The notes: a model not told the origin generated them from the sequence alone. A stretch of 64,000 nt of DNA from an uncultured Candidatus Saccharibacteria bacterium (GCA_964358005.1 CAYHNH010000001.1:78775-142774), one strand, 5' to 3'. Counted from the first letter of the stretch, positions 6,449 through 41,115 are shown. Made by a program: numbers and translations.

Positions 6449-6454
6449 GATGAT

Positions 6455-8045: not shown

Positions 8046-8069
8046 AATAAACCATTATAGCATCGGCGC

Positions 8070-10959: not shown

Positions 10960-11008
10960 CTAGGATATTATAGCGACAAGCGAGGACCAAAGCGAGCGCT
11001 TGCGCTCA

Positions 11009-11626
11009 CTAGACCAATGGTTCCCTGTAGGGGTCGCCGCTCGTCGAAGCTCCTGGTACTGCCGGGCTCGGCTTCTGTGTCACTTTTTCGGTAGGAACGG
11101 CGGTCGAACTGCGTAGGAGCTGTTCGACGAGGGATTCCCTTTTCTGTTCTGGTGCCGTGGTTGGTGCCTGCGGTGCGCTTCTAGGGGCCGTCGGTTGCGG
11201 GTTTTCGAGGCCTTCCAGCACGTCTTTGCGGTTTATCGGTACGATTGAGCCGTCATCAGCCTGGGGATTCCCAACGGCTGGCGTTTTCTCTATCGTGAAG
11301 TCGCCGGCCTGTTCGAGTGCCTTGTTGCCTTCGGTACTTGTAAGCTCGGTACCCTGTAGTTCCTCACGGAATACCTTTATGAGTTCTTCGTTCACGCTTT
11401 GGGTTATGCCATCTGCTGTTTCTGAATCAATTTTAAGTAAGTCGGTTATGTTCTGGGTGAAGTCTGCTGGTTGGCTCAAGCCCAAAAGGATCTTCTTTAT
11501 CTCTACGTCTAGCTCTCCCAATTGATCAAGGTTAAGACCGAACTTTTCACCAACGGATTCGACTGCCGTGTATATCCGGGGGTCCCGAGACAAGTTTTTT
11601 ATGCCGCCTATTGTTTGTGGGTTCAT
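11009..11626 (-). CDS. Acidic hypothetical protein within the T4SS-like locus
   Basis: A 205-aa ORF on the same strand, between the VirB6-like and PrgI-like genes. No recognisable motif. Confidence 0.4.
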   Translation of the reverse strand: MNPQTIGGIKNLSRDPRIYTAVESVGEKFGLNLDQLGELDVEIKKILLGLSQPADFTQNITDLLKIDSETADGITQSVNEELIKVFREELQGTELTSTEGNKALEQAGDFTIEKTPAVGNPQADDGSIVPINRKDVLEGLENPQPTAPRSAPQAPTTAPEQKRESLVEQLLRSSTAVPTEKVTQKPSPAVPGASTSGDPYREPLV

Positions 11627-11633
11627 ATTTTTA

Positions 11634-13571: not shown

Positions 13572-13575
13572 GTTT

Positions 13576-15096
13576 TTACAGGCGGTCACATGCTGTCTGG
13601 AATGCGGCGGCATCGGCGGTGAATGTTACTACGCGACCTCTGACATAGTTCAGGTCTGACTGGGAGGAGGTAACCAATGCCGCGACGTTCGATCCAGATA
13701 GGAATTGGCTGAGGCCATTGACCTGAGTGTTTATGTTTTGAGCTACCTGATCGATCGGATTATTTCCAATTACAGACGGTGGTGTGGATAGACGAATGAC
13801 TATGTAATCTCGCCTACTGGTCAATTCGTTAATAAAACTGCCCACCTCGTATTGTTGTGTCGCTATCAGGCTGAGGTTTGTCTGGGCGTCTTGTATCTTC
13901 TGTTGGGTCTGGCTGATGCCTAGTTTTCCTGTAAAGCACGCCTGTGCTTGGCTGTATTTGGTGTAGGCTTCGTTTACCAGGACGATGGCGTCATCGTAGT
14001 TTCTCTTAGCCATGCTTAAAGCACCCGCATCTGGATTGGAGCCATCGCCTGTCCCTCCTGTTGGGGTTAACGTGTTCGCATATACCTGTTGTAGGTACAA
14101 TCTCCCGCTTCCAGGTCCAGATGATCCGGAGCTCATAGCGTAAAGTCCTCTTTGCAGAGTCTTGGTTACAAGTTGCGATACGAGCGCGCTCACCACAGCG
14201 TTTATGTTGTCAGCGAGCTCGAGCTGTCTTGCCGGAGACTGGAGAGAGCTGTTCAATGATGCTTCTATGACAGAGCCAGGTGTTTTGTATTGGCACTTCT
14301 GCAGGTGGCCGTCCGGTCCGTCCTTGTAGGCTACACCGCCCGAGGAAGTCCCCCTGTAATTTCCGGCCTCTTCATCGGATATCCCGGCGTCTTCACATGA
14401 TTCCCATGAGAGAAAGCCTTTTCCCTGTATAAGGTCGCTCTGCACAAAGGCTTTCTTTTGTGAGACAGCGAACATCTGGTCGCTCCTTGCCATAAGGATG
14501 GTTCCTATCGGATTGTTCTGGTCCTCTGTTGTTAACGCAATGAAGGCTGGCCAGCCACCCTGCTTGAAATCTCCTTTTATGAAGCCGTCTATGCTCGCGC
14601 CGTTGACGTAACTGCCCTGATAGTTGTCTATGACGGTGCTTAGAGTGCAGGTATATTTTCGACGATTTGGCATACCGTCACCGGGGGTTTCAAGCTGTTG
14701 GATAGCTAGGGCGACCTTTATGTCTACGCTCCAAGGCGAGCACAGCCTTTTGAGCGGGCCGCTGTCTGAGATGAATTGACCGGTGAGCTGGTCAGCCGCG
14801 TCTAGGAAAAATCCTTCAGGATTAGTGAGGAATGAAGGCTTGCCCTTGAAGCCAGTGTTGATCCAATTAACCACGGACACTGTCATCTGATTCAGGACCT
14901 GCTTGGCTGCCATGTAGGCTAGTCTATCGCCGAGGAAATCCTTCCAGTTTCTCGCCTGATTAAAAAAGGCGTTGGCGATACCTGTCGGGCTAGTATCGCC
15001 GACCTGGAGGGTGGCGAGCTGCGCGTTTGCGATCTGCGAATTGGTTGTAAAAATAATACAGGAAATAATCAAAAACACCGTTGCGAGGTATTTCAT
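13576..15096 (-). CDS. Secreted hypothetical protein (likely start MKYLATVFLIISCIIFTTNSQIANAQ)
   Basis: Signal peptide, then a soluble Gly/Ser/Thr-rich domain with several Cys. Same strand, between the VirB6-like gene and rsmA. Confidence 0.5.
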   Translation of the reverse strand: MKYLATVFLIISCIIFTTNSQIANAQLATLQVGDTSPTGIANAFFNQARNWKDFLGDRLAYMAAKQVLNQMTVSVVNWINTGFKGKPSFLTNPEGFFLDAADQLTGQFISDSGPLKRLCSPWSVDIKVALAIQQLETPGDGMPNRRKYTCTLSTVIDNYQGSYVNGASIDGFIKGDFKQGGWPAFIALTTEDQNNPIGTILMARSDQMFAVSQKKAFVQSDLIQGKGFLSWESCEDAGISDEEAGNYRGTSSGGVAYKDGPDGHLQKCQYKTPGSVIEASLNSSLQSPARQLELADNINAVVSALVSQLVTKTLQRGLYAMSSGSSGPGSGRLYLQQVYANTLTPTGGTGDGSNPDAGALSMAKRNYDDAIVLVNEAYTKYSQAQACFTGKLGISQTQQKIQDAQTNLSLIATQQYEVGSFINELTSRRDYIVIRLSTPPSVIGNNPIDQVAQNINTQVNGLSQFLSGSNVAALVTSSQSDLNYVRGRVVTFTADAAAFQTACDRL

Positions 15097-15136
15097 GGGT
15101 GCACGGGGTTTTCTGTTTTGTATATTTACCATGTGT

Positions 15137-15976
15137 TTACGAGCCTATTCGGACTCCTGCCATCAGTAGATAGTCGTTAACCTCATAAAGAAGGCTGGCT
15201 ATATTCTGCATCGCTGCCACCCCGAGGCTGATTCCAGCTAATCCGCTTACAGGGTCTGTGTCTATGCGCCTTATCGCTTCAGCGTTGTGAATCGCCAGAC
15301 TTACGTTGTTCATCAGCTCCAGATGATATTTGGCAAGAGGGATCGGGGTATTTATAGTCTTGAGCGAAGCCAGGAGACTCTTGTAGTCTTCGATGATGGG
15401 GTCGATCTTTTTTAAGATGAGCATGTCGTTGGTCGTAAGCGCCTCCGTAGCTATCTGTGCCTCATTCTCTTTCGGCATGTGAGAACCAAATGTATTTGTT
15501 AAGACTTTGCCATAGTCATTCAATGCTACTGTGGTGCTCGCCGATAGTTTGATGTCTGAGATCGAAAATGTTTTAGGTAAAGGCAGTTTTGCTAGCGCTT
15601 CGGCCGTGACTTGACCCATGATGCTTGCAACGGAATCGGCGTCCGCGATAAGCCCTGATTGTTGTAACTCTTCATATTTGGTGAGGAATGATCGTCCGAG
15701 AAGGTCGGTGGCTGTAAGTTTTTCCGGTTCATTCGGCGTGGCCTTTGCCGGGCTCTTAAAAGTCGTGCTAGTAGAGTTTTTGTCTATGAATTGTTGCCGC
15801 CAGTTCGTATTTTCTGGAAGAGCTTCCGGCGTCGCCAGTGATATGCCGACGAGCTCGCTGCCTATCGGTGCTTTTATTCCTGATGAATCACCGCGGACGT
15901 AGAAAGCCACGCCTCCCACAGCGAGGATGCATACGACAAGAATCACGACGGTTTGCTTGCGTGGGTATACGGCCAT
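15137..15976 (-). CDS. Membrane-anchored hypothetical protein
   Basis: Single N-terminal TM helix (VVILVVCILAVGGVAFYV) and an extracytoplasmic alpha-rich domain. It is the first gene of the T4SS-like block. Confidence 0.5.
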   Translation of the reverse strand: MAVYPRKQTVVILVVCILAVGGVAFYVRGDSSGIKAPIGSELVGISLATPEALPENTNWRQQFIDKNSTSTTFKSPAKATPNEPEKLTATDLLGRSFLTKYEELQQSGLIADADSVASIMGQVTAEALAKLPLPKTFSISDIKLSASTTVALNDYGKVLTNTFGSHMPKENEAQIATEALTTNDMLILKKIDPIIEDYKSLLASLKTINTPIPLAKYHLELMNNVSLAIHNAEAIRRIDTDPVSGLAGISLGVAAMQNIASLLYEVNDYLLMAGVRIGS

Positions 15977-16819: not shown

Positions 16820-17566
16820 TTAAAAATCTATGAAAATAGCCTTGGCTCCAGTCGGTTTGGGAGGGATGCTGTCCTCGATGAGGTTCTTTTCGATGTCCTC
16901 GATGAACTCTGAAGGGGTATTGACCCTCTCGGTGCCGTAGATTTTCCTGACGAGCGAGTAGCTCAAGTGGATTTTTTTCCGAGCACGGGTCAGAGCTACA
17001 TAGAACAGTCTCCGTTCCTCCTCTGCCTCGTGCTGGCTCATGTCCCCGTCATCGGAATGCTTGAATGGGAAAAGGTCTTGTTCCAGTCCGGCTATGAACA
17101 CGTGGTCGAACTCGAGGCCTTTGGCCGCGTGCACGGTCATCAGTTTGACTGAGTCGGTATTCTCGTTGAGCTCGTCCTGATCGGTGGCGAGCGCCGCGTT
17201 CGTCAGGAATGCCTCGATGCCTTCCTCTGGCTTCAGGTGGTCGTACTGCGATGCTACGGAGACGAGCTCACGGACGTTAAGCAGGCGATCCTCATCCTCC
17301 ATATCTCCAGAAAGCAAAATCTTCTCAATGCCGCTTTCCTGGATGATGAAACGGATGACATCCGATGCCTTCTTTTCCTTTATCTCCTCGCGTATGTCAG
17401 AGAGGAGCTTCCTGAAATCGGCTATCTTGTCGCGCATGCCCGGAGGGAGAGAGTCCTCTTCCCCGCCGACGATCTTCGCTAGCGTCACCTTGCCGATGCC
17501 TCGAGGTGGCACGTTTATTATACGGCTAATGTCAGCCACGCTTTCTGGATTTAAGGATGCCTTCAC
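16820..17566 (-). CDS. uvrD: UvrD/PcrA-family helicase, C-terminal fragment (2B/2A domains); starts at a GTG three nt after an in-frame TAA
   Basis: ISRIINVPPRGIGKVTLAKI, VKLMTVHAAKGLEFDHVFIAGLEQDLFP and RRLFYVALTRARKKIHLSY are the conserved helicase motifs V/VI region. Confidence 0.7.
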   Translation of the reverse strand: MKASLNPESVADISRIINVPPRGIGKVTLAKIVGGEEDSLPPGMRDKIADFRKLLSDIREEIKEKKASDVIRFIIQESGIEKILLSGDMEDEDRLLNVRELVSVASQYDHLKPEEGIEAFLTNAALATDQDELNENTDSVKLMTVHAAKGLEFDHVFIAGLEQDLFPFKHSDDGDMSQHEAEEERRLFYVALTRARKKIHLSYSLVRKIYGTERVNTPSEFIEDIEKNLIEDSIPPKPTGAKAIFIDF

Positions 17567-17569
17567 GTA

Positions 17570-18751
17570 TTATAGGACGTCCTTCACCTCCTTCCTTTCG
17601 AAGAATTTCACCCCCAGCAATTGGTATGGGATGTTCTTCTTGATGAAGGCTTCTTCGAGCACGCGGGATTGGAAGTTTGTCCGGTATAGGACGGCGATCT
17701 CCCTAGGAGACAGGCCGGTCTCGATGAGATCCCGGGCGGAGTCAGCTATGGCTCGGGCTTCCTCGGTTTCAGAGTAGGAAGCCGAGAGGGATATCTTCTC
17801 ACCGGCAACATTGTCGGTATACAGGGTCTTCTTCTTGCGCATGGAGTTCTTCTCGATCACGGCATTGGCTGCCGCAAGAATAGTTTTCGTCGAGCGATAG
17901 TTCTTTTCGAGAGTGATCACGGTGGTGTTGGGATAGTCCTTTTCGAAATGGAGGATATTCTCTATCGTCGCCCCGCGCCAGCTGTAGATATTCTGGTCCG
18001 CGTCCCCGACGGCGCAGATATTGTTATGCGCTGCGGCTAGATGGTTGGCGATCTTGTATTGGACCTTGTTTGTGTCCTGGTATTCGTCTATGTGTATGTA
18101 CTTCCAGACCTTGGCGTAGCGTTCCCTGATATCCGCCCTCTCCAACAAGTGGGCCGTCTTTGCCAAGAGGTCATCGAAGTCTAGAGCTTTTTCCTTGAAT
18201 AGGATGGCGTCATATCTTTCCCACACCTCTGCTGTCATCTCCTGCATAAAATCCCTGGCCGCGTCCTTGTACTGGAGCGGATTATGCCCATCGCCCTTGG
18301 CTCGGGAGATGAGATTGAGGAATAGTCCCGGGTCGTATTTTTTCGGGTCGATGTTGCGCGAGAGCATGGCTTCTTTGACTGCCCGCTTCGAGTCGCCGCG
18401 ATCATATATCGTAAAATACCTGGTGAGGCCGAGCAGGTGGGCGTTTTCTTTTATTATGTGCACGCCGAGGGCGTGGAAAGTGCTTACGAACGGCTTTTCA
18501 TTGATGGAGATTGGGCGGTTTATTCCGTTGTCCACCGAAAGCAGGCTTGTCACCCTGTCGCGCATTTCCTTGGCCGCCTTGTTGGTGAAAGTTATTGCCA
18601 ATATCTCATGCGGAGCTACCCCGGACCGGACCAGATTGAGGATTCTATGGGCTATGACCCTAGTTTTGCCCGAACCAGCACCAGCGACTATGAGCAAGGG
18701 GCCGTTTTTGGTCTCGACGGCTCTTTTCTGGGCTTCGTTGAGAGTGTTCAC
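17570..18751 (-). CDS. uvrD: UvrD/PcrA-family helicase, N-terminal fragment (1A/1B domains), ending at an in-frame TAA
   Basis: LLIVAGAGSGKTRVIAHR (Walker A), ILAITFTNKAAKEM, HIDEYQDTN (motif II) and the KFFERKEVKDVL end. It is in frame with the downstream fragment. Confidence 0.7.
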   Translation of the reverse strand: MNTLNEAQKRAVETKNGPLLIVAGAGSGKTRVIAHRILNLVRSGVAPHEILAITFTNKAAKEMRDRVTSLLSVDNGINRPISINEKPFVSTFHALGVHIIKENAHLLGLTRYFTIYDRGDSKRAVKEAMLSRNIDPKKYDPGLFLNLISRAKGDGHNPLQYKDAARDFMQEMTAEVWERYDAILFKEKALDFDDLLAKTAHLLERADIRERYAKVWKYIHIDEYQDTNKVQYKIANHLAAAHNNICAVGDADQNIYSWRGATIENILHFEKDYPNTTVITLEKNYRSTKTILAAANAVIEKNSMRKKKTLYTDNVAGEKISLSASYSETEEARAIADSARDLIETGLSPREIAVLYRTNFQSRVLEEAFIKKNIPYQLLGVKFFERKEVKDVL

Positions 18752-26727: not shown

Positions 26728-27651
26728 ATGTCGCACAATATCTCCGATATGAAGCAGAAGTTCCTGGAATACGTGGAGATAGAGAGGGGCCGCTCGGTCC
26801 TGACTGTCAGGAATTATGACCAGTATCTATCGCGTTTCATACAATTCGCCAAAGTAAAGAACGCTGAGGATATCACGGCAGAGTCCGTGCGTGAATTCAG
26901 GTTGTGGCTCAACCGCTTGCCCTCCGGCAACAGAGACGCTCCCGGCGCTACGCTGAAGAAAAAGACCCAGAATTACTATTTGATAGCTATACGCTCCTTC
27001 CTGAAATTCCTAGCCAAACGCGGTATAAAGTCGCTCTCCCCCGAACAGATCGAACTCGCCAAGGTAGGCGAACGCCACCTCGATCTCATCTCTAGTGACG
27101 AGTTGGATAGGTTAATGAGCGCGCCGGACGGTAAAGACCTCAGAAACCTTCGTGATAAAGCCATTTTGGAGCTGCTTTTTTCTACTGGATTGCGCGTGTC
27201 CGAACTCTGTTCCCTCACCCGCGATGTCGATTTTGATGCTGACAGCTTCTCCATCCGCGGCAAAGGCGAGAAGATACGGGTCGTTTTCATATCTGATGAA
27301 GCTCGCAAGGCGGTCAAAGCCTATGTAGACAAGCGCACTGACGTCGATGACGCCCTGTTCGTCAGGGTGAGCCGCGAAGCAAGCTCAAAAAGGTCAGACT
27401 TGGCCTTGGATCCTCGCTCTGTACAGCGTCTCGTCAAATATTGGGCCATCAAGGCCGGCATCTCCAAGAAAGTGACTCCTCACGTGGTGCGGCACTCCTT
27501 TGCCACAGATCTCCTGCATAACGGGGCTGATCTACGTGCCGTCCAACTTCTCCTGGGCCATTCGAGCATAAGCACGACACAGGTCTATACCCATGTGGCT
27601 GATAGCGAACTCAAGCGCATCCACAAGCAGTTTCACAATAAAAGAAAATAG
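26728..27651 (+). CDS. Tyrosine recombinase, XerC/XerD family
   Basis: N-terminal SAM-like domain (FLEYVEIERGRSVLTVRNYDQYL) and a catalytic domain with RHSFATDLLHNGADLRAVQLLLGHSSISTTQVYTHV (R...H-x-x-R...Y). Confidence 0.85.
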   Translation: MSHNISDMKQKFLEYVEIERGRSVLTVRNYDQYLSRFIQFAKVKNAEDITAESVREFRLWLNRLPSGNRDAPGATLKKKTQNYYLIAIRSFLKFLAKRGIKSLSPEQIELAKVGERHLDLISSDELDRLMSAPDGKDLRNLRDKAILELLFSTGLRVSELCSLTRDVDFDADSFSIRGKGEKIRVVFISDEARKAVKAYVDKRTDVDDALFVRVSREASSKRSDLALDPRSVQRLVKYWAIKAGISKKVTPHVVRHSFATDLLHNGADLRAVQLLLGHSSISTTQVYTHVADSELKRIHKQFHNKRK

Positions 27652-30552: not shown

Positions 30553-30624
30553 GCCCTCGTGGTGAAATGGATATCATTCTTGTCTTCGGAACAAGCGTTG
30601 GGGGTTCGAATCCCTCCGAGGGCA
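30553..30624 (+). tRNA. tRNA-Arg (anticodon TCG)
   Basis: Hand-folded cloverleaf: acceptor GCCCTCG/CGAGGGC, D-stem GTGA/TCAT, anticodon stem CTTGT/ACAAG with loop CTTCGGA, T-arm GGGGG-TTCGAAT-CCCTC, discriminator A. CCA is not encoded. Confidence 0.75.
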
Positions 30625-30688
30625 CTTTCTTCCAAAACATAAAGAACTAAGTTATACTCTTTTGACTTGTGTTTTGAAGGTGCGTGTT

Positions 30689-30759
30689 GCGGGTATGGTT
30701 TAATGGTAGGACGCGTCCTTGCCAAGGACGAGGTGGGAGTTCGATTCTCCCTACCCGCA
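30689..30759 (+). tRNA. tRNA-Gly (anticodon GCC)
   Basis: Acceptor GCGGGTA/TACCCGC, anticodon stem CGTCC/GGACG with loop TTGCCAA, T-arm GGGAG-TTCGATT-CTCCC, discriminator A. Confidence 0.85.
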
Positions 30760-30797
30760 CAAGTCAGTTTATCAGAGCTAGCATTCCAAAAAGAGGT

Positions 30798-30840
30798 GAT
30801 AGGTCGATCACATGTCTTTTTTGGTCTTTAGAATTAAAAA
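30798..30840 (+). terminator. Hairpin plus T-run after the tRNA-Arg/tRNA-Gly pair
   Basis: CCAAAAAGA...TCTTTTTGG (9-bp stem) encloses the GTGAT...ATCAC sub-stem, and the 3' arm is itself T-rich (tcttttttggtcttt). Confidence 0.4.
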
Positions 30841-31007
30841 CGGCTTAATTTCGGTGTTTGGAGTGTACGTTTACACGTGAAACCTGGGGATAACACTGTG
30901 AACACGGTTGATAAAAGACACAAAATAGGCCTAATTCTCGTCGTTTTGACCGATTAACAGAGTCCTTAACGTGCCACGGCCTTACGAGGCTATTTTTCAA
31001 GTACAAA

Positions 31008-31388
31008 ATGCATAATCGACAAAAAGGGGACTTGGGCGAGAGTATTGCCTGTGCGCGTTTGATCAAGGAGGGTTTTGTTATCAAGGCTAGGAACTATATG
31101 AAGAAATGGGGCGAGATAGATATCATTGCCGAAAAGGACGACACGGTTCATTTTGTTGAAGTAAAAAGCGTGATGGTCCATAAAGGCCAGTCTTTTAGGG
31201 ATTCCCATGTTCCAGAGGAGAACGTTCATCCCTGGAAAACTCTCCATATTCGCAGGATGGTCAAGACCTATTTTGCCGAGAAAGGGGAGAATGGTGAAAC
31301 AGAGTTTCAGTTTCATATTTTTTGCGTGTATATCGACATGAAAGCCAGAAAAGCTCGCATTAAATGGCTAAAGAACATAATTCTGTGA
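31008..31388 (+). CDS. yraN: YraN/UPF0102-family endonuclease-like protein
   Basis: GDLGESIACARLIKEGFVIKARNYMKKWGEIDIIAEKDDTVHFVEVK is the hallmark YraN motif (GExxA...GEIDIIA...FVEVK). Confidence 0.75.
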   Translation: MHNRQKGDLGESIACARLIKEGFVIKARNYMKKWGEIDIIAEKDDTVHFVEVKSVMVHKGQSFRDSHVPEENVHPWKTLHIRRMVKTYFAEKGENGETEFQFHIFCVYIDMKARKARIKWLKNIIL

Positions 31389-31443
31389 TAATATGCCATT
31401 GTCCGCCGGACTGCCGCCTTGCTGGCAGGCAGGGCAGGACATC

Positions 31444-31516
31444 CGGAGCGTGGTGTAACGGCTAACATCCCTGTTTTGGGTACAGGTGACTCCGGGTTCG
31501 AATCCCGGCGCTCCGA
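31444..31516 (+). tRNA. tRNA-Pro (anticodon TGG)
   Basis: Acceptor CGGAGCG/CGCTCCG (7 Watson-Crick pairs), anticodon stem CCTGT/ACAGG with loop TTTGGGT (G37), T-arm CCGGG-TTCGAAT-CCCGG, discriminator A. Confidence 0.85.
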
Positions 31517-31524
31517 CAAGCAAA

Positions 31525-31956
31525 ATGAAGAAAACACTAGAATTCTTTGATCATCTCGAGGACAAAGTGCGCGGACACTTGAGCCGCTACCCGATCGTAT
31601 ATACGATGATCGGAGCAGTTGCTATAGTCCTGTTTTGGCGAGGAGTTTGGCACACAGCGGATATCCTACAGGCGAAGGGAGGTTGGCTCGGCTGGGTATT
31701 CTATGAGCCGACCAACCTGGTCATCGTCCTGGTGATCCTTCTAGCGACCGGCCTGTTCGTCTCATATTTCATCGGGGATACGATACTCCTGAGCGGCCTC
31801 AAAAAAGAAAAGAAGGTCGCCGAAAGGACCGAAAGGGAGGTTAAGGAAGAGGATGAGAAGATATCTGAGCTTCGCACCACGATCAAGGAGATGAAAAAGG
31901 AGGTGGACCAGATAAAAGAGATCGTGGTAGAGGAGCACAAGTTACATCATTCATGA
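31525..31956 (+). CDS. Small membrane protein with a C-terminal coiled coil (hypothetical)
   Basis: Start taken at MKKTLEFF, just after tRNA-Pro. Two TM helices (IVYTMIGAVAIVLFW; LVIVLVILLATGLFVSYFI), then a KE-rich coiled coil. Confidence 0.5.
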   Translation: MKKTLEFFDHLEDKVRGHLSRYPIVYTMIGAVAIVLFWRGVWHTADILQAKGGWLGWVFYEPTNLVIVLVILLATGLFVSYFIGDTILLSGLKKEKKVAERTEREVKEEDEKISELRTTIKEMKKEVDQIKEIVVEEHKLHHS

Positions 31957-31978
31957 TAGGATGTTGCTGTCCGAAAAA

Positions 31979-32049
31979 GCGGGATTAGTTTATCGGTAAA
32001 ATAACAGTTTTCCAAACTGTGGTGGCGGGTTCGACTCCCGCATCCCGCA
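31979..32049 (+). tRNA. tRNA-Gly (anticodon TCC)
   Basis: Acceptor GCGGGAT/ATCCCGC, anticodon stem ACAGT/ACTGT with loop TTTCCAA, T-arm GCGGG-TTCGACT-CCCGC, discriminator A. Confidence 0.85.
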
Positions 32050-32050
32050 C

Positions 32051-32623
32051 ATGATAATAGGCGTAGATTTGGATGATGTGCTGCTGGATTTTTTCGGCAC
32101 ATTTTGCGATTTCATAAACGAAAAGAATGGCACGAAATACGACAGGAACAGCCTGACTGATTTTTATCTTGAAAAATCTTGGGGCTGGACGAAAGAGGCC
32201 GCCTCGCAGGCGATCACGGACTTCTATGCATCCGCCAAGCATGTGGGTGCTGCTCCCGTAAAAGGCGCAGTGGAAGCGGTAAGCACGCTTTCGAAGGGCA
32301 ATACTCTGCACATCATAACTTCCAAGCCGGACTCTCTGCGGGAAATTACTGAGAAGTGGGTGTATAAAAATTACCCGGGGATGTTCGCCGGCATTCATTT
32401 CATGAATCAATACCACAGCAAAGGCGAGAAACGCCTTAAGGCCGATGTCTGCAAAGAGCTGGGCGCCACGATATTGATCGAGGATTCCCTGGAGCAGGCG
32501 CAGAGCGCGGACGCCAAGGGTATCCGCGTCTTGATGCTGGACGCTCCCTGGAACCAGAAAGATGTGCGGACATCTATAACCAGGGTGAAGTCATGGAACG
32601 AGATTGTCACTTTACTTTCTTAG
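32051..32623 (+). CDS. HAD-superfamily 5'(3')-deoxyribonucleotidase-like hydrolase
   Basis: HAD motif I at the extreme N-terminus (MIIGVDLDDVLLDF), then LHIITSKP (motif II-like) and ILIEDS (motif IV-like). The ATG lies 2 nt after the tRNA-Gly 3' end. Confidence 0.6.
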   Translation: MIIGVDLDDVLLDFFGTFCDFINEKNGTKYDRNSLTDFYLEKSWGWTKEAASQAITDFYASAKHVGAAPVKGAVEAVSTLSKGNTLHIITSKPDSLREITEKWVYKNYPGMFAGIHFMNQYHSKGEKRLKADVCKELGATILIEDSLEQAQSADAKGIRVLMLDAPWNQKDVRTSITRVKSWNEIVTLLS

Positions 32624-33376
32624 AGAGATATCCCAGAGGGTCTTGAAGTGCATGAGCTGCAGCTTGGCGAACTCCTCGCTCTGTACTATGAACCCAAAGG
32701 GCTTCTCGCTGGAGGATACGAAAGCGACTTTGTCTGCATATATCCAGTAGCTGATCTCGAAATGCATGGATTTCGGAGTGTAGCGTATCTCCCGCAAGTC
32801 GTCTTTCCTAGTGCCCATGTAGGGATATTTTTTGAAGTTTATCTTTCTGGAATCGTGGCGACGTAGGGCCTTCAAGCTTACATTATTGGCGATACGCCTC
32901 TTGTTGTGCCACTCCAAATATTCTGTGCCTAGGATATCCATCATCTTATGAGTCGGCCAGAGGGAATAGGTCTCTATATTCTTGTAAAAAAGGGCATCGT
33001 TAAAGATCCTTTGTATACCTTCCTGACCAGCGAAAAATCGGATCTGCGGCTCGACCGTCTTGGTCCTCTTTCTTAAAGAGGGAAGGGCTTCCTTCAATAA
33101 TTTTTTTCCGTGCTCGATTACGGCTGTCTGCTGGTCTAGGAGCTGGGTCAGAGTATCTGGATCGCTTGCTCCGAATATGGTTTTCGAATCCTCGATCTTC
33201 GATACGACCAGACCCTTATTCATGAGGTCGTTCAGGCCGTCATATACAGTGGGGCGGGGCATGCTCAATCTCTGCGAGATCATCCGGGCTGATGCCGCGC
33301 CAGATCCCAGGAGATCCAGGTATATACGCTGGGTGCCGCCCTCCACGCCCAGTACTTTTAGGATATCTTCTATCAC
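32612..33376 (-). CDS. TrmB-family transcriptional regulator, copy 1
   Basis: N-terminal winged HTH (LKVLGVEGGTQRIYLDLLGSGAASARMISQRLSMPRPTVYDGLNDLMNKGLVV). It is divergent from an SBP gene. Confidence 0.7.
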   Translation of the reverse strand: MIEDILKVLGVEGGTQRIYLDLLGSGAASARMISQRLSMPRPTVYDGLNDLMNKGLVVSKIEDSKTIFGASDPDTLTQLLDQQTAVIEHGKKLLKEALPSLRKRTKTVEPQIRFFAGQEGIQRIFNDALFYKNIETYSLWPTHKMMDILGTEYLEWHNKRRIANNVSLKALRRHDSRKINFKKYPYMGTRKDDLREIRYTPKSMHFEISYWIYADKVAFVSSSEKPFGFIVQSEEFAKLQLMHFKTLWDISLRK

Positions 33377-33449
33377 GGGCTCATTCTAGCAGGATTGTCG
33401 CTTTTTGACGACAGATAGACAACTTTGTTGACTGCGCTAGGCTGTCTGC

Positions 33450-34550
33450 ATGAAAACCAAGAATATCATTTTGGCTCTAATAGCGATCGCCCTAGCAGCC
33501 ATTATCATAACCAGGGCGGTTAGGCCCAATAATAGCTCCTCTATACGAGTTGCGGGCATATTCTCCCTGACCGGCAATGCTGCTGTCTATGGAGAGCCGG
33601 CCAAGAATGGCATGATGCTCGCCATCGAGGACATAAATGCCAAGGGAGGCATAAACGGCAAGCTCGTGGAAGCAGTCTACGAGGATTCGCAATTCGATCC
33701 AAAGATCGCCATTTCTGCCTATCAAAAGGCGCGGGCAGAAGGCATCCGGCTCATCGTCAGCAATGGCTCCTCCGTTTCGCTGGCTCTCCAGAAGCCCGTA
33801 GTCGACAATAAAGACCTGCAATTCGAAACTGGAGCAGTCACTCCGGCTTACAGCGATGGGGTACCAAATACCTGCAGGCTGACCCTCACTGCTCCGGTCG
33901 CTGGGAAGAGGCTGGGCGACTTTATTGCAGAAAAAATGAAGCCGCAATCATTCGCGGCATTGACCATCAATGACGATTTCGGCAGGTCCATGGCCGAGAA
34001 TGTCTCAAAAACCGTTTCCGGCTATGGGATAGCAGTCAAAGGAGCCGAATCATTCGACAAGAGTGCGGGAGACTTTAGGACACAGATAACTAAACTCGCC
34101 GCGATGAAACCAGACGTTCTCATGGTCATACCTCTGGGCGGCCAGGCGCCTGCTTTGCTGAAGCAATTGAAGGAGTTGAACTGGAAGGGCACGATGGTGA
34201 GCGACCATTGGACCATCATCAATGACAGCATCAAGGACTTGAGCCTGGTCGAGGGTATATATTTCGTGAACTATGATTGGGATGGCCTGTCGTGGCCGGC
34301 CTATATGGATAGATTCAAAACTTCGGCTCCTGCCATCGCGGCCAACGCCTACGACTCAATGCAGCTCATTGCCTACGGCATCAAGGGTGCCGGTACTGAA
34401 GACCCCGAGTCATTGGCGAAGTGGCTCATAGAAAATACCGAGGATTATCAGGGTATCACTGGCTCTATAACACTGAACCCTGACTGTGAGGCGTCTAGGA
34501 GCGCTGTTATTCAACAGGTTAAGGATGGAAAATTTGTGACGGTGGAGTGA
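33450..34550 (+). CDS. Membrane-anchored periplasmic-binding-protein type I (Leu/Ile/Val-binding-like) substrate-binding protein, copy 1
   Basis: N-terminal TM anchor (IILALIAIALAAIIIT), then IRVAGIFSLTGNAAVYGEPAKNGMMLAIEDINAKGGINGKLVEAVYEDSQFDP, the PBP1/LivJ-like signature. Confidence 0.8.
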   Translation: MKTKNIILALIAIALAAIIITRAVRPNNSSSIRVAGIFSLTGNAAVYGEPAKNGMMLAIEDINAKGGINGKLVEAVYEDSQFDPKIAISAYQKARAEGIRLIVSNGSSVSLALQKPVVDNKDLQFETGAVTPAYSDGVPNTCRLTLTAPVAGKRLGDFIAEKMKPQSFAALTINDDFGRSMAENVSKTVSGYGIAVKGAESFDKSAGDFRTQITKLAAMKPDVLMVIPLGGQAPALLKQLKELNWKGTMVSDHWTIINDSIKDLSLVEGIYFVNYDWDGLSWPAYMDRFKTSAPAIAANAYDSMQLIAYGIKGAGTEDPESLAKWLIENTEDYQGITGSITLNPDCEASRSAVIQQVKDGKFVTVE

Positions 34551-34567
34551 TCAGAAAGCACCCATTA

Positions 34568-35338
34568 CTACTGTTTTGCCGGCTCTAGCGTCTCCCAAAG
34601 TATCTCGAACACTGATTTGAAGACGTCTACCATCGGCGGTATCTCTATGACCACGGCCATAGCCTTTAATTCAGGGCCTACGATGAAGATCTTGTCATCG
34701 TAGATGTCTATCGTGCTTCGAAAGAAGTATTTTGCTGGCATGTATTTAAAGGCTCGCAATAGGGAAGGGTCGTTCTGGCCGATCTCCTTGCGAGAATCGT
34801 CAGACATTATGAGCTTAACCTTGATGTTGTTGGCAGCCCGGCGTTTTCTGTACTCGATGAGAAAATCTCGGTCTATATTGAGGAAGCCTGAGGCGCTGCC
34901 GATGATGTAATACTCGCGACCTTTGTATTCGTGGAGCACATTCTCATAAAAAAGCTCAAACTCTTTTTTTGACCTGATAAAACGCACCCCATATAGTTCA
35001 CCAGTCTTTCCTTCGAGTGCTTCAAGCTTGGGGATGATGCTGTTCAAGGCCTCGATCTTTCGGCTGTAGAGAGTCGAAAGACCCGACGGCTTGATTGCCC
35101 TGAAGAATTTCTTACGGCCTGAGTCGTAAATAGTCACTAAGCCCTGGGAGATCAACCTTTCTATTATCGGATAGACGGTCGTTCGTTTTATGTCGATCTT
35201 TTTCGCCAAGGTCGTGGCGTCGGCACCGCCTGTTTTTAGCAGTCCCAAATAGACATTCGTTTCCATTTCAGAAAGGCCGATTTCCTTTAGTACAGTTGTA
35301 ATATTTGATATTTCCATGTTGTCATTTTTTAACAACAA
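34568..35338 (-). CDS. TrmB-family transcriptional regulator, copy 2
   Basis: HTH LKEIGLSEMETNVYLGLLKTGGADATTLAKKIDIKRTTVYPIIERLISQGLV. It is divergent from SBP copy 2. Confidence 0.7.
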   Translation of the reverse strand: MLLKNDNMEISNITTVLKEIGLSEMETNVYLGLLKTGGADATTLAKKIDIKRTTVYPIIERLISQGLVTIYDSGRKKFFRAIKPSGLSTLYSRKIEALNSIIPKLEALEGKTGELYGVRFIRSKKEFELFYENVLHEYKGREYYIIGSASGFLNIDRDFLIEYRKRRAANNIKVKLIMSDDSRKEIGQNDPSLLRAFKYMPAKYFFRSTIDIYDDKIFIVGPELKAMAVVIEIPPMVDVFKSVFEILWETLEPAKQ

Positions 35339-35442
35339 ACTATGTAAATAGTGTAATATTCCTTTAAATATAAGTCAATACGTTTGATAGCTGTTAAAAT
35401 TACTTGACAATACATTTATGATTCTGTATACTTACCCTCATT

Positions 35443-36561
35443 ATGAAAAATACCAAACTTTGGGTTGGAGCCATTATCCTAGTGGTGATCGTTGCCCTCA
35501 GCATCGTTTTTGGACGTTCTACGCAAACGGTCAAAATAGGGGCGATGTTCCCGCTAACTGGCGGTCTGGCTTCGTATGGCGAATTGGCCAGGAACATGGC
35601 CGCGCTTGCAGTTGAGGAAATAAATTCCACTGGCGGCATCAATGGCCGGCAATTGGAGCTCATAATAGATGATCACAAATGCGATCCGAAGCAAGCTATT
35701 GCGGTATTCGAAAAACAAGCCAGCGTGGATGATGTTCACATCTTCACTTCTGTTGCTTGTACGGGGACAGTATTGAGCATCGCTTCTCAATTAGAGGCAA
35801 AGAACGCTGTTCTTCTCGGTACGATCACTAGCGGTAACAAACTTACCGGCGTTTCGCCGAACTTTTTCAGAAATTGGGCCTCTGATAGACAGGAATCGCG
35901 CCTTCTCGCTGATGAGATAATCAAAAAGGGCTACAAGAGTGTTGCGGCGATTTACGAGGAGACTGATTATGCCAAGGGTCTCGTGATATCCTTGCAGGAA
36001 TTCCTGAAAGATAGCGGCGTCGAGCTGTCCACCGAGTCTTTTGCCGTGAATGCGACGGATGTGCGGTCCCAGTTGACGAAATTGTCCGCGCTCAAAGCGG
36101 ATCTGCTCTTTGTGAGCGTGCAAACTGTCACTACCGGCGAAACGGTGCTCACACAGATGGAACAATTGAAGTTCCAGCCGAATAACCTCTTCGTGAGCGA
36201 CAACATCCTAAAGACTCAGACCCTGCTCACTGACCACAGCAGACTCCTCGAGGGCGCGATCGGTGCTGACTATGTCATCCCCGTGAATTCTAGGCTCGAG
36301 GATGTCATGCTCAAATATAAAGAAAAGTACGGTTCTGATTGTCTACAGATAAATCTGTGTGCAGCTGAATACGATGCAGCTCGTCTCTTGGCTGAGGCGA
36401 TGAAAAATACCGACGGATCAACCTTGTCTGTCCGCAACTACTTGAAGGTGGTGAACTATGACGGCGTGAGCGGACAGGTCAGCTTTGACAGCAATAACGA
36501 CAGAGCTAATGCGGCTTATTCGTTGTTTAAAATAAGTGCTGGCAAGGCGGGGATTAAGTAG
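35443..36561 (+). CDS. Membrane-anchored PBP1-type substrate-binding protein, copy 2
   Basis: TM anchor (LWVGAIILVVIVALSIVF), then VKIGAMFPLTGGLASYGELARNMAALAVEEINSTGGINGRQLELIIDDHKCDP. Confidence 0.8.
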   Translation: MKNTKLWVGAIILVVIVALSIVFGRSTQTVKIGAMFPLTGGLASYGELARNMAALAVEEINSTGGINGRQLELIIDDHKCDPKQAIAVFEKQASVDDVHIFTSVACTGTVLSIASQLEAKNAVLLGTITSGNKLTGVSPNFFRNWASDRQESRLLADEIIKKGYKSVAAIYEETDYAKGLVISLQEFLKDSGVELSTESFAVNATDVRSQLTKLSALKADLLFVSVQTVTTGETVLTQMEQLKFQPNNLFVSDNILKTQTLLTDHSRLLEGAIGADYVIPVNSRLEDVMLKYKEKYGSDCLQINLCAAEYDAARLLAEAMKNTDGSTLSVRNYLKVVNYDGVSGQVSFDSNNDRANAAYSLFKISAGKAGIK

Positions 36562-37704
36562 CTATCTAGCCACTTTCACCTTACCATCCTCTATGACATG
36601 CATGACTGACGGTCGGCTGACTTCGCAGTCGGAATTGAATTTGAGTGTGCCGCCCACGGCTTCATAAGGCCCCATCCTAGTGGTCATATAATCGGAAACG
36701 GCCGCCGGAGTTATATCACCGGCGTTCTGCATCGCTTGTGCGACTACCATGACCGAATCGTAACCGTTGACTGCAGCCGCGAGAGGGTAGCCGCCGTATT
36801 TTTTAAAGAATGACCTTTTGAACTCTGCGAGAATCGGCGAATCATCTGATTGCGGCTCTGCCACGAATGGATAGTCAACAAATACGACGCCATTAGCCAG
36901 TGCCAGGTCCTTCATGGCGGGATTTACGATCGTAAAGAGGTCAGCCACGATCTGTTTCATGTAACCGAGCTGCTTCAGCTGTTTGAGCATGGCCTCTATG
37001 GAGTTGGTCGCGTTTATGATCACGAGCGCGTCGGTCTTGTCCTGGAGCGCCTTCAACTTTGTGACCTGTGTTCTAAAGTCGCTAGCAGTTTGGTCATAGC
37101 TTTCCGTTGCCACTATGGTCCCACCGTGCTCTTCAACAAAGTCCTCTATCGATGTGCGCGCCGTGTTACCGTACTCGTTTGCCGTTACAAGGAATGCCAC
37201 GCGGGCGTTCGGGAATTTTTCCATCGCATATCCACCGATGGAACGTGAGAAATCCTTTGCCGTCAGAGCGATACGGCAGGTTTTTGGATTTCCATCGAAG
37301 TATGTTCCGTGGATGCCGATCGGGACCATGCCAAAATCACCGTTTTTTCTAAGCAAAGGAGCGACTGGAACAATGCCATTGCCGCCGTCAACAAAAATAA
37401 ATTCAATGCCACGCTGTTTCAGCGCCTCGTATGCTGAAATGACCTTCTTTGAATCGCTAGCGTAGTCTTCTGTGACAAGTTCGAGCCTTTTGCCCTTGAT
37501 GCCGCCATCGGAATTGACCTTCGAAACTGCCATCTGCATACCGTTGTATTCTTGCTCACCCAATGCCGCCAGGGGACCGGTCATGAATAGGATGTTGCCT
37601 ATTTTTATCGAATCTTTTGAGTCAGAGTTATGCTGTGTGGCCAAAACAAATACTAAAACGCCCACTACAACAAAAACTGTTATGCCTATGATTTTATTTT
37701 TCAT
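36562..37704 (-). CDS. Membrane-anchored PBP1-type substrate-binding protein, copy 3
   Basis: TM anchor (IIGITVFVVVGVLVFVLA), then IKIGNILFMTGPLAALGEQEYNGMQMAVSKVNSDGGIKGKRLELVTEDYASD. Confidence 0.8.
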   Translation of the reverse strand: MKNKIIGITVFVVVGVLVFVLATQHNSDSKDSIKIGNILFMTGPLAALGEQEYNGMQMAVSKVNSDGGIKGKRLELVTEDYASDSKKVISAYEALKQRGIEFIFVDGGNGIVPVAPLLRKNGDFGMVPIGIHGTYFDGNPKTCRIALTAKDFSRSIGGYAMEKFPNARVAFLVTANEYGNTARTSIEDFVEEHGGTIVATESYDQTASDFRTQVTKLKALQDKTDALVIINATNSIEAMLKQLKQLGYMKQIVADLFTIVNPAMKDLALANGVVFVDYPFVAEPQSDDSPILAEFKRSFFKKYGGYPLAAAVNGYDSVMVVAQAMQNAGDITPAAVSDYMTTRMGPYEAVGGTLKFNSDCEVSRPSVMHVIEDGKVKVAR

Positions 37705-37821
37705 CCAGCAATTCTGCTACACAGTCAAGGATATGTCATATTTGTCGACAAACTTGTCACAATTGACTATTAACGCCATATAAATTAAGCTTTAGTTGTT
37801 GACGAAATACTCGACAAATTA

Positions 37822-38565
37822 GTGAAAACCAACCAATTAACAGCGGTGTTGCAGGACTTGGGCCTCACGGAAAACGAATCAAAAGTCTACTTTTCCAGCC
37901 TCTCACTAGGCCCGTCAGCCATACTCAAGATCGCCCAGGCGGCCGAATTGAAGCGTACGACTGTGTATTCGGTCATCGACGCACTCAAGCAGAAAGGCCT
38001 GATGAATATCCAGGTTGCTGGCTTCAAGAAAAAGTTCGTGGCGGAGGACCCAAACAAGCTTGAGGCAATATTGGAGACGCGCCGGCAGAGGCTACGCGAT
38101 GTTCTGCCTGAATTCTCGGCGCTATACAGTCTCCAGGGAGGTGAGGCGTTCATAAAATACTACGAAGGGCTCGAATCGGTGAAAGGCGTCTACGAGGGTC
38201 TGATCAAAGGTATAAAGCCTCATGAGGATTACCTGGTCATGGGCAACGTAGATCATTGGATCAAGCTCGACAAGGAATTTTTCTCGGATTTTTCCTACAG
38301 ACGGGCAAAATTGCCCATAAACATCCGTCTTCTAGTTCAAGATACCGAGATTGGGCGAGAATGGCTGGCTCTCGAGAAGAATTTCAACTCAAAAGTGAGG
38401 TTGCTGCCGAAAGAGACTCAGCTCACGACCAATCTGGTCATCACGCCAGAGAAAGTCCTCATCCACCAGCTGACTCCGCCTGTCCTCGGCATAGTCATTG
38501 AGAACAAGAACGTCATCCGCATGCACAGGGAGATGTATGAGATAGCGTGGGGAGCTAGTCAATAA
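37822..38565 (+). CDS. TrmB-family transcriptional regulator, copy 3
   Basis: HTH LQDLGLTENESKVYFSSLSLGPSAILKIAQAAELKRTTVYSVIDALKQKGLM. It is divergent from SBP copy 3. Confidence 0.7.
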   Translation: MKTNQLTAVLQDLGLTENESKVYFSSLSLGPSAILKIAQAAELKRTTVYSVIDALKQKGLMNIQVAGFKKKFVAEDPNKLEAILETRRQRLRDVLPEFSALYSLQGGEAFIKYYEGLESVKGVYEGLIKGIKPHEDYLVMGNVDHWIKLDKEFFSDFSYRRAKLPINIRLLVQDTEIGREWLALEKNFNSKVRLLPKETQLTTNLVITPEKVLIHQLTPPVLGIVIENKNVIRMHREMYEIAWGASQ

Positions 38566-38592
38566 AAAAACGGCAGGAAGGGGTTCCTGCCG
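38564..38592 (-). terminator. Rho-independent terminator for the minus-strand high-GC gene
   Basis: Stem CGGCAGGAA / TTCCTGCCG with loop GGGG. On the minus strand it is followed by TTTTTTT. Confidence 0.5.
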
Positions 38593-38621
38593 TCGAGGGA
38601 TCGGAATCGGCCTGCGGCCGA

Positions 38622-39335
38622 TTACATGTGCCGGCGGAGGCCGCCGAGGGCCACCAGGCGACCGAGCGCGGAAATCAGCCCACGCGGGTCGTGCTGCTCA
38701 CCGTCACCGTTATCGCCATCGTCGTCCTTGTCGAACGGGTCGGACTTCTGCTCGGCCAGTTCCTCCTTCTCCTTGGAGGCCAGGTGGCGCGCGATGAAGA
38801 CCTGCGCCTCCTCGCTCTCCGTGGTGCCGTAGCGCTCCTCGGCGTGCGCACGGACCTGATCCTCGTAATCCGGCTTCCGGACCAGGACCCAGCCGTCGCT
38901 GACCCCGAGACTTCCGCGTTCGCCCTGACCAGGGAATTCGTCGTGGATGAAGTCCCAGGCGAGCTTCTCAGCCTGCTCAGAGAGGCGCTTGAGCGTGACG
39001 GAGTCGCGCTTGTAGCGCCCGATGTCGGCCAGCTTGCGCGGATACGGGAGTTGCAGCGCCAGCGCGTGGTATTCGGTGTGCAGCGAGAGGAACTCGCGCG
39101 CCTTCGGGTCAGTGATGACGCCGATGACGGTCACCCGGCTCGGATCCGCGTTGAGGAGCGGCTGGAACAGCTTTTCCTCCGGCGTGATCTCGCCGCGCAT
39201 GATGGCGGCGACACGATTGGTGAACTGCCCGTAGACGCTCTTCGGCGCGGGGGCCGTGGTTCCATCAGATGTCCCGGTCGCTTCCGAAGCGCCACGGTGT
39301 GCCGTGGCGCTGATGCTAGCATTCGATGTTTTCAT
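38622..39335 (-). CDS. Hypothetical protein with a GC-content outlier (about 65% GC against about 50% in flanking genes); likely start MKTSNASISATAH
   Basis: Continuous ORF with a dedicated terminator. The product has an acidic C-terminal tail (DKDDDGDNGDGEQHD) and no recognised motif. GC counts in 60-nt samples were 63-67%. Confidence 0.5.
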   Translation of the reverse strand: MKTSNASISATAHRGASEATGTSDGTTAPAPKSVYGQFTNRVAAIMRGEITPEEKLFQPLLNADPSRVTVIGVITDPKAREFLSLHTEYHALALQLPYPRKLADIGRYKRDSVTLKRLSEQAEKLAWDFIHDEFPGQGERGSLGVSDGWVLVRKPDYEDQVRAHAEERYGTTESEEAQVFIARHLASKEKEELAEQKSDPFDKDDDGDNGDGEQHDPRGLISALGRLVALGGLRRHM

Positions 39336-39461
39336 GGTGCTGAACGTTTTTCTGTTTTTGGGTTCTTGACTTGAGGCGGTTTCTAACCGAATCAAAGAGT
39401 TTTTGAGCACTGCGCACGAGCCGCAGTCTGGCGGAAACCTTAACACTAGGTTCAGGGGGTG

Positions 39462-40566: not shown

Positions 40567-41115
40567 TTACACGCGGAAATTCGGCAGGCCGATCAACCGC
40601 AACTCCAGCGAGCAATTGCCGATCACGCTCCGGAAGAACCACGGCGCGAAGAGGGCAAAGAAGCTGTTTCCTGCCAGATGCCACAAGGTGAAGGGTATTT
40701 GACCAATGGCTGCCACGCTGAGAGGTGTCCCATGGATCGGTGCCAGGAGCACTCCTGTCACGAGATCGAAGAAAAGAGTCCCAACCACGCTGGCGCCGAC
40801 GTAGTGGCGCACAGTAATGGGTCGATTCTTGAGGTAATAGCCTCCGGCTACCCCCACGATGGCGTAGCAAATTGAGGTTGCGATGGTCCAAGGACCCAAC
40901 GCATTCGTGCATGCATCCAGCATGATCATCCCAAGGAAGCCGTATAGGCCTGCGACCCAGGGGCCGTAAGCGCGGGCGCCGGCAAGCTCGGTTGCCATGA
41001 GCGGAGCGACGTTCGGCAGGCCGAGGAGCGGCGTTACCAAACGGAATAGGAGCGTAATGAAGCCAGCCAATGCGAACTTCGCGAGGCCGACAGACCAAAC
41101 GATGGGATCTTTCAT
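40567..41115 (-). CDS. Small 5-6 TM membrane protein, ECF S-component / BtuM-CbrT-like (candidate vitamin transporter)
   Basis: 182 aa, wholly hydrophobic with short loops, in the size and topology class of solitary S components. It is preceded by a candidate cobalamin riboswitch. Confidence 0.45.
   Translation of the reverse strand: MKDPIVWSVGLAKFALAGFITLLFRLVTPLLGLPNVAPLMATELAGARAYGPWVAGLYGFLGMIMLDACTNALGPWTIATSICYAIVGVAGGYYLKNRPITVRHYVGASVVGTLFFDLVTGVLLAPIHGTPLSVAAIGQIPFTLWHLAGNSFFALFAPWFFRSVIGNCSLELRLIGLPNFRV

Follow-up and report, generated by a model that had tools for sequence, protein, structure and literature searches.

Three divergent gene pairs, each made up of a gene for a short TrmB-family regulator (R1-R3) and a gene for a HAAT-family substrate-binding protein (SBP; S1-S3), lie side by side in a 64 kb stretch of DNA (the window, by which the whole stretch is meant) from an uncultured Candidatus Saccharibacteria bacterium; the parent contig measures 205,391 bp. 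The block begins with R1 (positions 32612-33376, minus strand; 254 amino acids), a TrmBL2-type protein, and the LivJ-like S1 (33450-34550, plus strand; 366 amino acids), continues with R2 (34568-35338, minus strand; 256 amino acids as called) and S2 (35443-36561, plus strand; 372 amino acids), and ends with S3 (36562-37704, minus strand; 380 amino acids) and R3 (37822-38565, plus strand; 247 amino acids, GTG start). In Pfam searches, R1, R2 and R3 match PF01978 with 42.0, 60.9 and 48.9 bits, respectively, above the cut-off of 25.6 bits, and the match is confined to the N-terminal ~70 residues. S1, S2 and S3, all predicted to carry an N-terminal anchor, match PF13458 (Peripla_BP_6) with E values of 5e-49, 8e-46 and 3e-53 over positions 1-343, 1-341 and 1-326 of its 343.

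All six genes were thus found exactly where an original prediction, made from the sequence alone, had placed them, as three divergent regulator/SBP pairs with TrmB-family and PBP1-type identities (three matches each to PF01978 and PF13458). Pairwise alignment also upheld its claim that the three regulators and the three SBPs are paralogous, although this paralogy is old: pairs of regulators are 19-26% identical and pairs of SBPs 27-32%. Its term "tandemly amplified" is misleading: because these identities are low and the same triple recurs in a relative, the modules are old conserved cassettes of ancient paralogs rather than products of a recent amplification. Two gene starts bear on what follows. 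R2 probably starts at Met8 (ATG at 35317) rather than at the TTG at 35338, since the first seven codons of the gene as called contain a conserved operator-like element; the orthologs of R2 at two related loci (L005 and L010; such loci are numbered with the prefix L) are ~60% identical and 246 and 245 amino acids long. The public gene call of S3 gives 340 amino acids from Met41, without the membrane anchor, but the 380-amino-acid form is probably the correct one, because its N-terminus is kept in all orthologs.

The original prediction that genes for an ATP-binding cassette (ABC) permease or ATPase are lacking in the 64 kb was confirmed in three ways. First, neither ABC_tran nor BPD_transp_2 was found by Pfam among 40 other open reading frames (ORFs) of the window. 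Second, no ABC signature motif occurs in its six frames. Third, a tblastn search of the window with the LivF, LivG, LivM and LivH proteins of the clade gave a best match of only E = 0.29.

Regulators of the TrmBL2 Type

A profile was built from 26 regulator homologs of the clade, R1 being a member. The match to PF01978 is shared by 25 of the 26, and the sugar-binding domain PF11495 was found by Pfam in none of them. With the NCBIfam equivalog models for TrmB and TrmBL1, whose cut-offs are 500-650 bits, R1-R3 score 15-34 bits. The profile aligns end to end with TrmBL2 (5bpd, 264 amino acids; 5-248 against 5-263, E = 1.4e-9) and with only the N-terminal part of TrmB (3qph; 5-156, E = 2.8e-13), to which R2 alone gives a weak match over residues 12-169. 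A low-confidence AlphaFold2 model of R2 (pLDDT 59.5) shows a winged helix-turn-helix (wHTH), a long helix (84-108) and an alpha/beta domain. The analogy with classical sugar TrmB regulators, drawn in the original prediction, therefore holds for the family assignment but is imprecise as to sugar sensing, since these proteins are of the TrmBL2 type and have no sugar-binding subdomain, which is also absent from TrmBL2 (PMC4877046).

The regulator family is large, with 2,220 clusters at 50% identity (E<=1e-10), mostly of 240-260 amino acids. It also has relatives of 510-1,080 amino acids with 2-7 matched stretches (P0190-P0199, P0227, P0322 and similar), which look like tandem fusions of the complete TrmBL2-like module.

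Predicted Anchors and Pockets of the Binding Proteins

S1-S3 start with MKxK followed by 16-19 uncharged hydrophobic residues without a lipobox. The same beginning, MKxK and an uncharged hydrophobic segment (median 19 residues), is found in 54 of 55 SBP homologs, and none of the homologs has a genuine lipobox, the sole regular-expression match sitting in a likely over-extended ORF start. The first beta-strand of the mature domain lies within ~10 residues of this hydrophobic segment. An N-terminal transmembrane anchor had been predicted for each SBP; the hydrophobic segment is present and the N-terminus fits a signal-anchor, but it is also compatible with a cleavable signal peptide. Two cysteine pairs are conserved and exclude each other, the LivJ-type pair C53/C78 in S2 and the pair C143/C360 in S1 and S3, and they would fit extracytoplasmic disulfides.

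A profile of S3 orthologs matches solved SBPs over their full length, 4gnr with E = 9e-40 and Escherichia coli LivJ (1z15) with E = 2e-29, and the best solved relatives of S1 are the Atu2422-type amino-acid SBPs 3ip5/3ipc. LivJ-type and urea-type models rank first in NCBIfam but stay far below their cut-offs, and S1-S3 are not LivJ equivalogs because their LivJ scores of 79-98 bits are far under the cut-off of 477. Ligand pockets were compared in the numbering of LivJ, the sequence of which is identical to 1z15 and the ligand contacts of which are Y18, L77, C78, S79, A100, A101, T102, Y150, Y202 and F276 (PMC6983066). S2 has the most LivJ-like pocket of the three: five contacts are kept by it and its orthologs, Y18, C78, S/T79, S/T102 and Y150, with T79 and S102 in S2 itself. 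S1 keeps three (Y18, S79 and A101), and S3 keeps only Y150 and has a divergent pocket with L18, G79 and I102; the full contact set is conserved in none of them. This comparison indicates that the three paralogs differ in their ligand-contact residues, at an alignment identity of ~25%. Since the pocket of S2 is the most LivJ-like, its ligand is likely an amino acid.

A Candidate Operator in the Intergenic Regions

The intergenic regions between the regulator and SBP genes have an inverted repeat in common, TGTC-N9/10-GACA, often in the form TGTCG-N7/8-CGACA. In the first region, the candidate operator O1, TGTCGCTTTTTGACGACA (33396-33413), is the only TGTC-N10-GACA in the 64 kb. It lies 20 nt from the R1 start codon and overlaps the -35 box and spacer of the predicted R1 promoter, and a similar element is present in L010. 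The second region has two candidate sites, each with one mismatch. The R2-proximal site TGTCATTTTTTAACAACA (35320-35337) has a counterpart, TGTTAAAAAATTACGACA, beside the R2 orthologs in L005 and L010, and the S2-proximal site TGTTAAAATTACTTGACA (35392-35409) overlaps the -35 box of the predicted S2 promoter, TTGACA-17-TATACT at 35404-35432, which scores 11/12 in a promoter scan. In the S2-type regions of the window, L005 and L010, TGTTAAAAT-N3-TTGACAA is invariant, together with the TATACT -10 box. In the third region, the S3-proximal candidate TGTCATATTTGTCGACA (37734-37750) is the only TGTC-N9-GACA in the 64 kb; it overlaps the -35 box of the predicted S3 promoter and falls within a 19-nt block, TGTCGACAAATATGACATA, which is invariant in the S3-type regions of three genomes. 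The R3-proximal candidate TGACGAAATACTCGACA (37800-37816; one mismatch) lies 5 nt upstream of the R3 GTG, at the position taken by exact sites beside the L005 ortholog of R3 and beside regulator genes of L021 and L028.

Both exact matches of the window fall in 294 bp of regulator/SBP intergenic DNA. Across the relatives, the density of the exact motif is 2.8 per kb in 23 non-redundant intergenic regions of this kind and 0.024 per kb in the remaining ~292 kb, a ~115-fold enrichment in which orthologous sites are not independent observations; the conservation of sites within otherwise diverged spacers is itself informative. In an unbiased scan of 256 four-base inverted repeats at 14 spacings (3,584 combinations), TGTC-N9 ranks first with 5 observed against 0.01 expected. 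TGTC is present at spacings 9 and 10 only, and 4 of the 6 next matches represent this element too, in a shifted register or with its alternate spacing. In most cassettes, the site lies 3-30 nt from the start codon of the regulator. A candidate for the shared palindromic operator suggested in the original prediction has thus been found, and it is enriched and conserved. Known operators of the TrmB family are inverted repeats of the same span, such as the Thermococcales glycolytic motif (TGM, TATCAC-N5-GTGATA), and some family members are autoregulated (PMC4158304).

A generic inverted-repeat finder missed the candidate operators of the first and second intergenic regions because their arms are short. 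A riboswitch or other non-coding RNA in the cassette leaders was ruled out by an Rfam scan, which gave none there.

Conservation and Linkage to Liv-Type Genes

Identical genes are present on short contigs in independent assemblies from Hainich groundwater 0.1 µm filtrates. Relatives of S3 were found by a profile search of genome contigs with the ortholog alignment, and the same search with the S3 sequence alone gave no match; all detectable relatives are in Patescibacteria metagenome-assembled genomes (MAGs) labelled Saccharibacteria or Taylorbacteria. One related genome (contigs of 522-701 kb), in which the S3 ortholog is 58% identical, has three consecutive pairs with the regulator gene on the minus and the SBP gene on the plus strand. 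Downstream, this genome and the window have ECF-S, HU, RNase Y, RsmE, trigger factor and H+-PPase genes in common. Clear orthology to cassettes 2 and 3 of the window is seen for two of these pairs (R3 and its L010 ortholog have a normalised similarity of 0.77). Cassette 3 of the window is inverted relative to its orthologs, and the left flank of the block is a synteny breakpoint with respect to the closest relative. To the left lie a tyrosine recombinase gene (26728-27651, plus strand) and, at the breakpoint, four tRNA genes (Arg-tcg, Gly-gcc, Pro-tgg and Gly-tcc) within 30553-32050 on the plus strand.

Regulator-like, SBP-like and Liv-like ORFs were mapped over all fetched loci, and linkage was counted over 14 non-redundant loci. 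In the clade, SBP paralogs form arrays of 3-9 very divergent members, in which regulators may or may not be interleaved, and in 11 of the 14 loci these arrays adjoin or interleave with HAAT-type (LivH/M/G/F) genes. On a complete chromosome of 743 kb (L018), LivH, LivM, LivG and LivF genes are immediately upstream of five regulator/SBP pairs; their products match BPD_transp_2 and ABC_tran in Pfam, and LivM, LivG and UrtE/LivF are their top NCBIfam models. L014 has LivH and LivM in the middle of the array and LivG and LivF further along, and in L011, L012, L015, L017, L020, L023, L025 and L028, LivG and/or LivF are found among SBP genes. In the closest relative, a restriction/modification-methyltransferase island parts the orthologous triple from LivG (with a BCA_ABC_TP_C tail) and LivF, which stand 9 kb upstream of the triple, and further regulator/SBP cassettes lie beyond. 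Because the arrays of relatives are linked to Liv genes in this manner, the triple of the window is the distal portion of a more extensive Liv-type locus, from which it was severed by rearrangement.

LivF of the clade is 77-89% identical between distant members. The array-linked LivF/UrtE-like ATPase (e.g., L012 11492-12229 and L021 10001-10720) is exceptionally well conserved in Patescibacteria, being 74-99% identical to its best 120 matches, and the SBPs neighbouring this conserved LivF are only 25-45% identical. At several loci, one or more SBP genes stand between LivF and LivG, and in L025 (4678-5118, minus strand) and L026 (214-654, minus strand) a gene for a PemK-like toxin interrupts the transporter locus between LivG and an SBP gene. 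The island of ~9 kb mentioned above (L021 10835-19480; also L005 1-3595) encodes a Type ISP/MmeI-like restriction-methylase, N6/N4 methyltransferases, a ParB-methyltransferase fusion and a pair of helix-turn-helix and M78 peptidase proteins.

Over 20 cassettes, similarity among regulators correlates with similarity among SBPs (Mantel r 0.68, reached in 0 of 5,000 permutations). However, this correlation is driven largely by orthologs, the best partners agree in only 6 of the 20 cassettes, and strict co-evolution of regulator and SBP was rejected. The order of cassettes also varies between genomes. Cassettes are thus inherited as units over short distances and reshuffled over longer ones.

Proposed Function and Alternative Explanations

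The favoured explanation, with a probability of roughly 0.68, is a multi-receptor HAAT-type importer whose SBP cassettes are individually repressible under short TrmB-type regulators and, in the source genome, separate from the translocator genes. The three pairs would be self-contained expression cassettes of an ABC uptake system of the LivHMGF type, as is typical of this Patescibacteria clade. Each cassette would supply one extracytoplasmic type-I SBP, held at the membrane through its N-terminal hydrophobic anchor, and one divergently encoded cytoplasmic regulator, which would consist of a wHTH, a dimerisation helix and a single alpha/beta domain as in TrmBL2. A dimer of the regulator most likely binds the 17-18 bp inverted repeat TGTC-N9/10-GACA. 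Since this site adjoins the start codon of the regulator and also covers the -35 box of the SBP promoter in two of the cassettes, we infer that the regulator would repress both itself and its partner SBP until an intracellular signal, the putative inducer, releases it. The three SBPs, whose pockets differ, would deliver different small nutrients as their presumed ligands to one shared LivHM/LivGF translocator, which is presumably encoded by the source genome, elsewhere and more than 25-32 kb away, probably on another contig. The original prediction had offered an unlinked shared transporter as one of two roles for the SBPs. This role is now strongly favoured: because homologous arrays adjoin or interleave with LivHMGF-type genes in relatives, the SBPs most likely serve a common HAAT-type translocator whose genes lie elsewhere.

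Several observations weigh against this explanation. No translocator gene was found for the source genome, and among the closest 120 relatives of the clade LivF none is on the 205,391-bp parent contig, the closest matches (P0141-P0143) deriving from other samples. Because no LivF could be placed on this contig, the translocator genes are probably not on it, and the partner is probably on another contig or absent. As for the regulators, TrmBL2 is an abundant chromatin protein of low specificity (PMC4877046). The model of R2, computed with the three window paralogs as the alignment, is poor, so that the effector domain is defined by the sequence profile only. The first intergenic region has a single recognisable site, and the sites of cassette 2 and the R3-proximal site each deviate from the consensus at one position. 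In L021 an S2-like SBP goes with an R3-like regulator, and in L018 dissimilar SBPs are flanked by similar regulators; because regulators and SBPs have not strictly co-diversified, a regulator need not sense the ligand of its partner. Finally, the pocket assignments are tentative, being drawn from alignments of ~25% identity.

The first alternative is that LivHMGF was lost and that the SBPs act independently of any translocator, as surface receptors, scavengers or host-contact proteins whose expression is merely set by the TrmB-like partners. The want of ABC parts in the 64 kb and of a placed LivF on the 205 kb contig would agree with it, as would L013 and L016, which have single S3-like SBPs and no Liv gene within 10 kb, and the 13 kb contig of L010, which has several cassettes and no Liv gene. 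However, homologous SBPs are linked to Liv genes in 11 of the 14 loci, the closest relative keeps LivG and LivF only 9 kb away, and the ancestral role in transport is favoured by the intact ORFs and their conserved promoters and operators. MAGs, moreover, tend to be incomplete, and no signalling partner is encoded nearby. This alternative is therefore regarded as unlikely, and no positive support was obtained for the surface sensors or ligand scavengers of the original prediction. It is quite unlikely that the lineage lost, or never linked, a Liv translocator and that anchored, individually regulated SBPs work in it without an ABC partner. If this were true, the SBPs might capture host-derived metabolites or mediate contact between episymbiont and host, for example, and TrmBL2-type regulators would be a bacterial ligand-responsive switchboard that chooses the receptor on display.

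A second alternative, very unlikely, holds that the TrmB-like proteins are general nucleoid or global regulators like TrmBL2 and that their pairing with SBPs is a legacy of joint duplication. Similarity to TrmBL2 over the full length, with no sugar-binding subdomain (PMC4877046), is in keeping with such a role, and so are the imperfect co-diversification and the very large size of the family (2,220 clusters). It is opposed by the confinement of a specific inverted repeat to regulator/SBP intergenic DNA (both window matches, the ~115-fold enrichment and the first rank in the scan) and by the fixed positions of the sites beside regulator start codons. Half-sites, furthermore, differ by cassette type (TGTCG..CGACA, TGTTA..TGACA and TGTCA..TGACG), as expected for paralog-specific recognition. 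A third alternative, a decaying remnant severed from its transporter by rearrangement at the tRNA cluster and now being lost, would account for the synteny breakpoint with its four tRNA genes and nearby tyrosine recombinase and for the inverted cassette 3, but is highly improbable in view of six full-length ORFs with conserved anchors, cysteine pairs and wHTH domains, of conserved promoter and operator blocks, and of the recurrence of the same sequences in independent assemblies from the same site.

Other Features of the Window

A strong hairpin terminator (38569-38594) lies between R3 and the next ORF (38622-39446, minus strand; 274 amino acids). This ORF, directly after R3, has no Pfam match and an acidic C-terminus, and the stretch containing it is locally rich in GC (56%, compared with 47-50% in the cassettes). 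Elsewhere, Pfam matches identify genes of housekeeping and the cell envelope, namely those for DnaA, YidC, a cluster like type IV secretion systems (T4SS), PNPase, the CCA-adding enzyme, RNase Y, trigger factor, an H+-pyrophosphatase, the type IV pilus proteins PilB and PilC and the S-component of an energy-coupling factor (ECF) transporter. The T4SS-like cluster (5162-15976, minus strand) includes a PF18895 pilin-domain protein and a TraG/VirB4-like ATPase, and several large ORFs (205-659 amino acids) beyond its genes have no Pfam match. An AdoCbl-II (cobalamin) riboswitch (RF01689; 41214-41275, minus strand), which scores 39.5 bits against a gathering score of 36.5, is directly upstream of the ECF S-component gene (40567-41115, minus strand), and this position suggests a B12-regulated component of vitamin uptake. 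Two in-frame ORFs of 393 and 248 amino acids, divided by one TAA stop at 17570-17572, make up a UvrD/PcrA-type helicase gene (16820-18751, minus strand). A pseudogene, a true split gene and an assembly error are all conceivable; recoding by genetic code 25 was ruled out, the stop being TAA.

Significance and Comparison with Known Systems

Patescibacteria, also known as the candidate phyla radiation (CPR), are ultra-small and have tiny genomes without most biosynthesis and depend on imported metabolites; to our knowledge, how their imports are chosen and regulated is largely uncharted. The present loci suggest a modular uptake in which one conserved Liv-type translocator is served by a changeable set of 3-9 divergent anchored SBPs, many of which have their own short TrmB-type repressor and a recognisable candidate operator. 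TGTC-N9/10-GACA would be a concrete candidate for the regulatory code of a large bacterial TrmB branch (>2,000 clusters at 50% identity). S1-S3-like SBPs are candidate nutrient receptors, the ligands of which would reveal what is taken up from hosts or surroundings.

The system of E. coli with LivJ/LivK and LivHMGF is alike in the fold family of its SBPs (PF13458; 1z15, 4gnr), in the service of one translocator by more than one SBP and in its translocator, since the relatives of the window likewise carry two BPD_transp_2 permeases with LivG- and LivF-like ATPases. It differs in having two close SBPs instead of three to nine very divergent, membrane-anchored ones; anchoring of SBPs is expected in a cell without a periplasm. 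Unlike in E. coli, SBP genes here often have their own divergent regulator and are unlinked from the presumed translocator in the source genome.

Archaeal TrmB of the trehalose/maltose operon of Thermococcus litoralis and Pyrococcus furiosus is alike in being a PF01978 regulator whose gene stands with that of an ABC importer's SBP; the SBP promoter has a palindromic operator, and TrmB represses this promoter by binding there (PMC4158304). However, it has ~340 amino acids with a C-terminal PF11495, whereas the regulators here have 247-256 amino acids without PF11495. Its transporter is a sugar transporter of the CUT1 family and its operator is TACT-N3-AGTA, in contrast to a HAAT-type transporter, TGTC-N9/10-GACA and bacterial hosts here. 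TrmBL2 of Pyrococcus and Thermococcus (5bpd, 5box), with ~250-264 amino acids, has the same domain order and also no sugar-binding subdomain, but it is single-copy, highly conserved and abundant, whereas several fast-diverging paralogs are found per genome here. TrmBL2 has low sequence specificity, and each regulator here is beside an SBP gene with a specific inverted repeat nearby. TrmBL1/Tgr with the TGM provides a likeness in the operator, a 17-bp inverted repeat of the same span, and autoregulation has been reported for the family; one site of L018, TATCAC-AAAAA-GTGACA, agrees with the TGM in 11 of its 12 positions. At position 2 of each half-site, the consensus here carries G/C where the TGM carries A/T, and TrmBL1, unlike R1-R3, is a global sugar-responsive regulator with a sugar-binding domain.

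Searches of the literature for TrmB in CPR or for Liv-type SBP arrays in Patescibacteria brought up no account of this arrangement. The sharing of a translocator by several SBPs, orphan SBP genes and the control of ABC-transporter genes by TrmB are already known, and no principle is overturned. What is new is the one-to-one pairing of TrmBL2-type regulators with Liv-type SBP genes in large bacterial arrays, together with a candidate operator.

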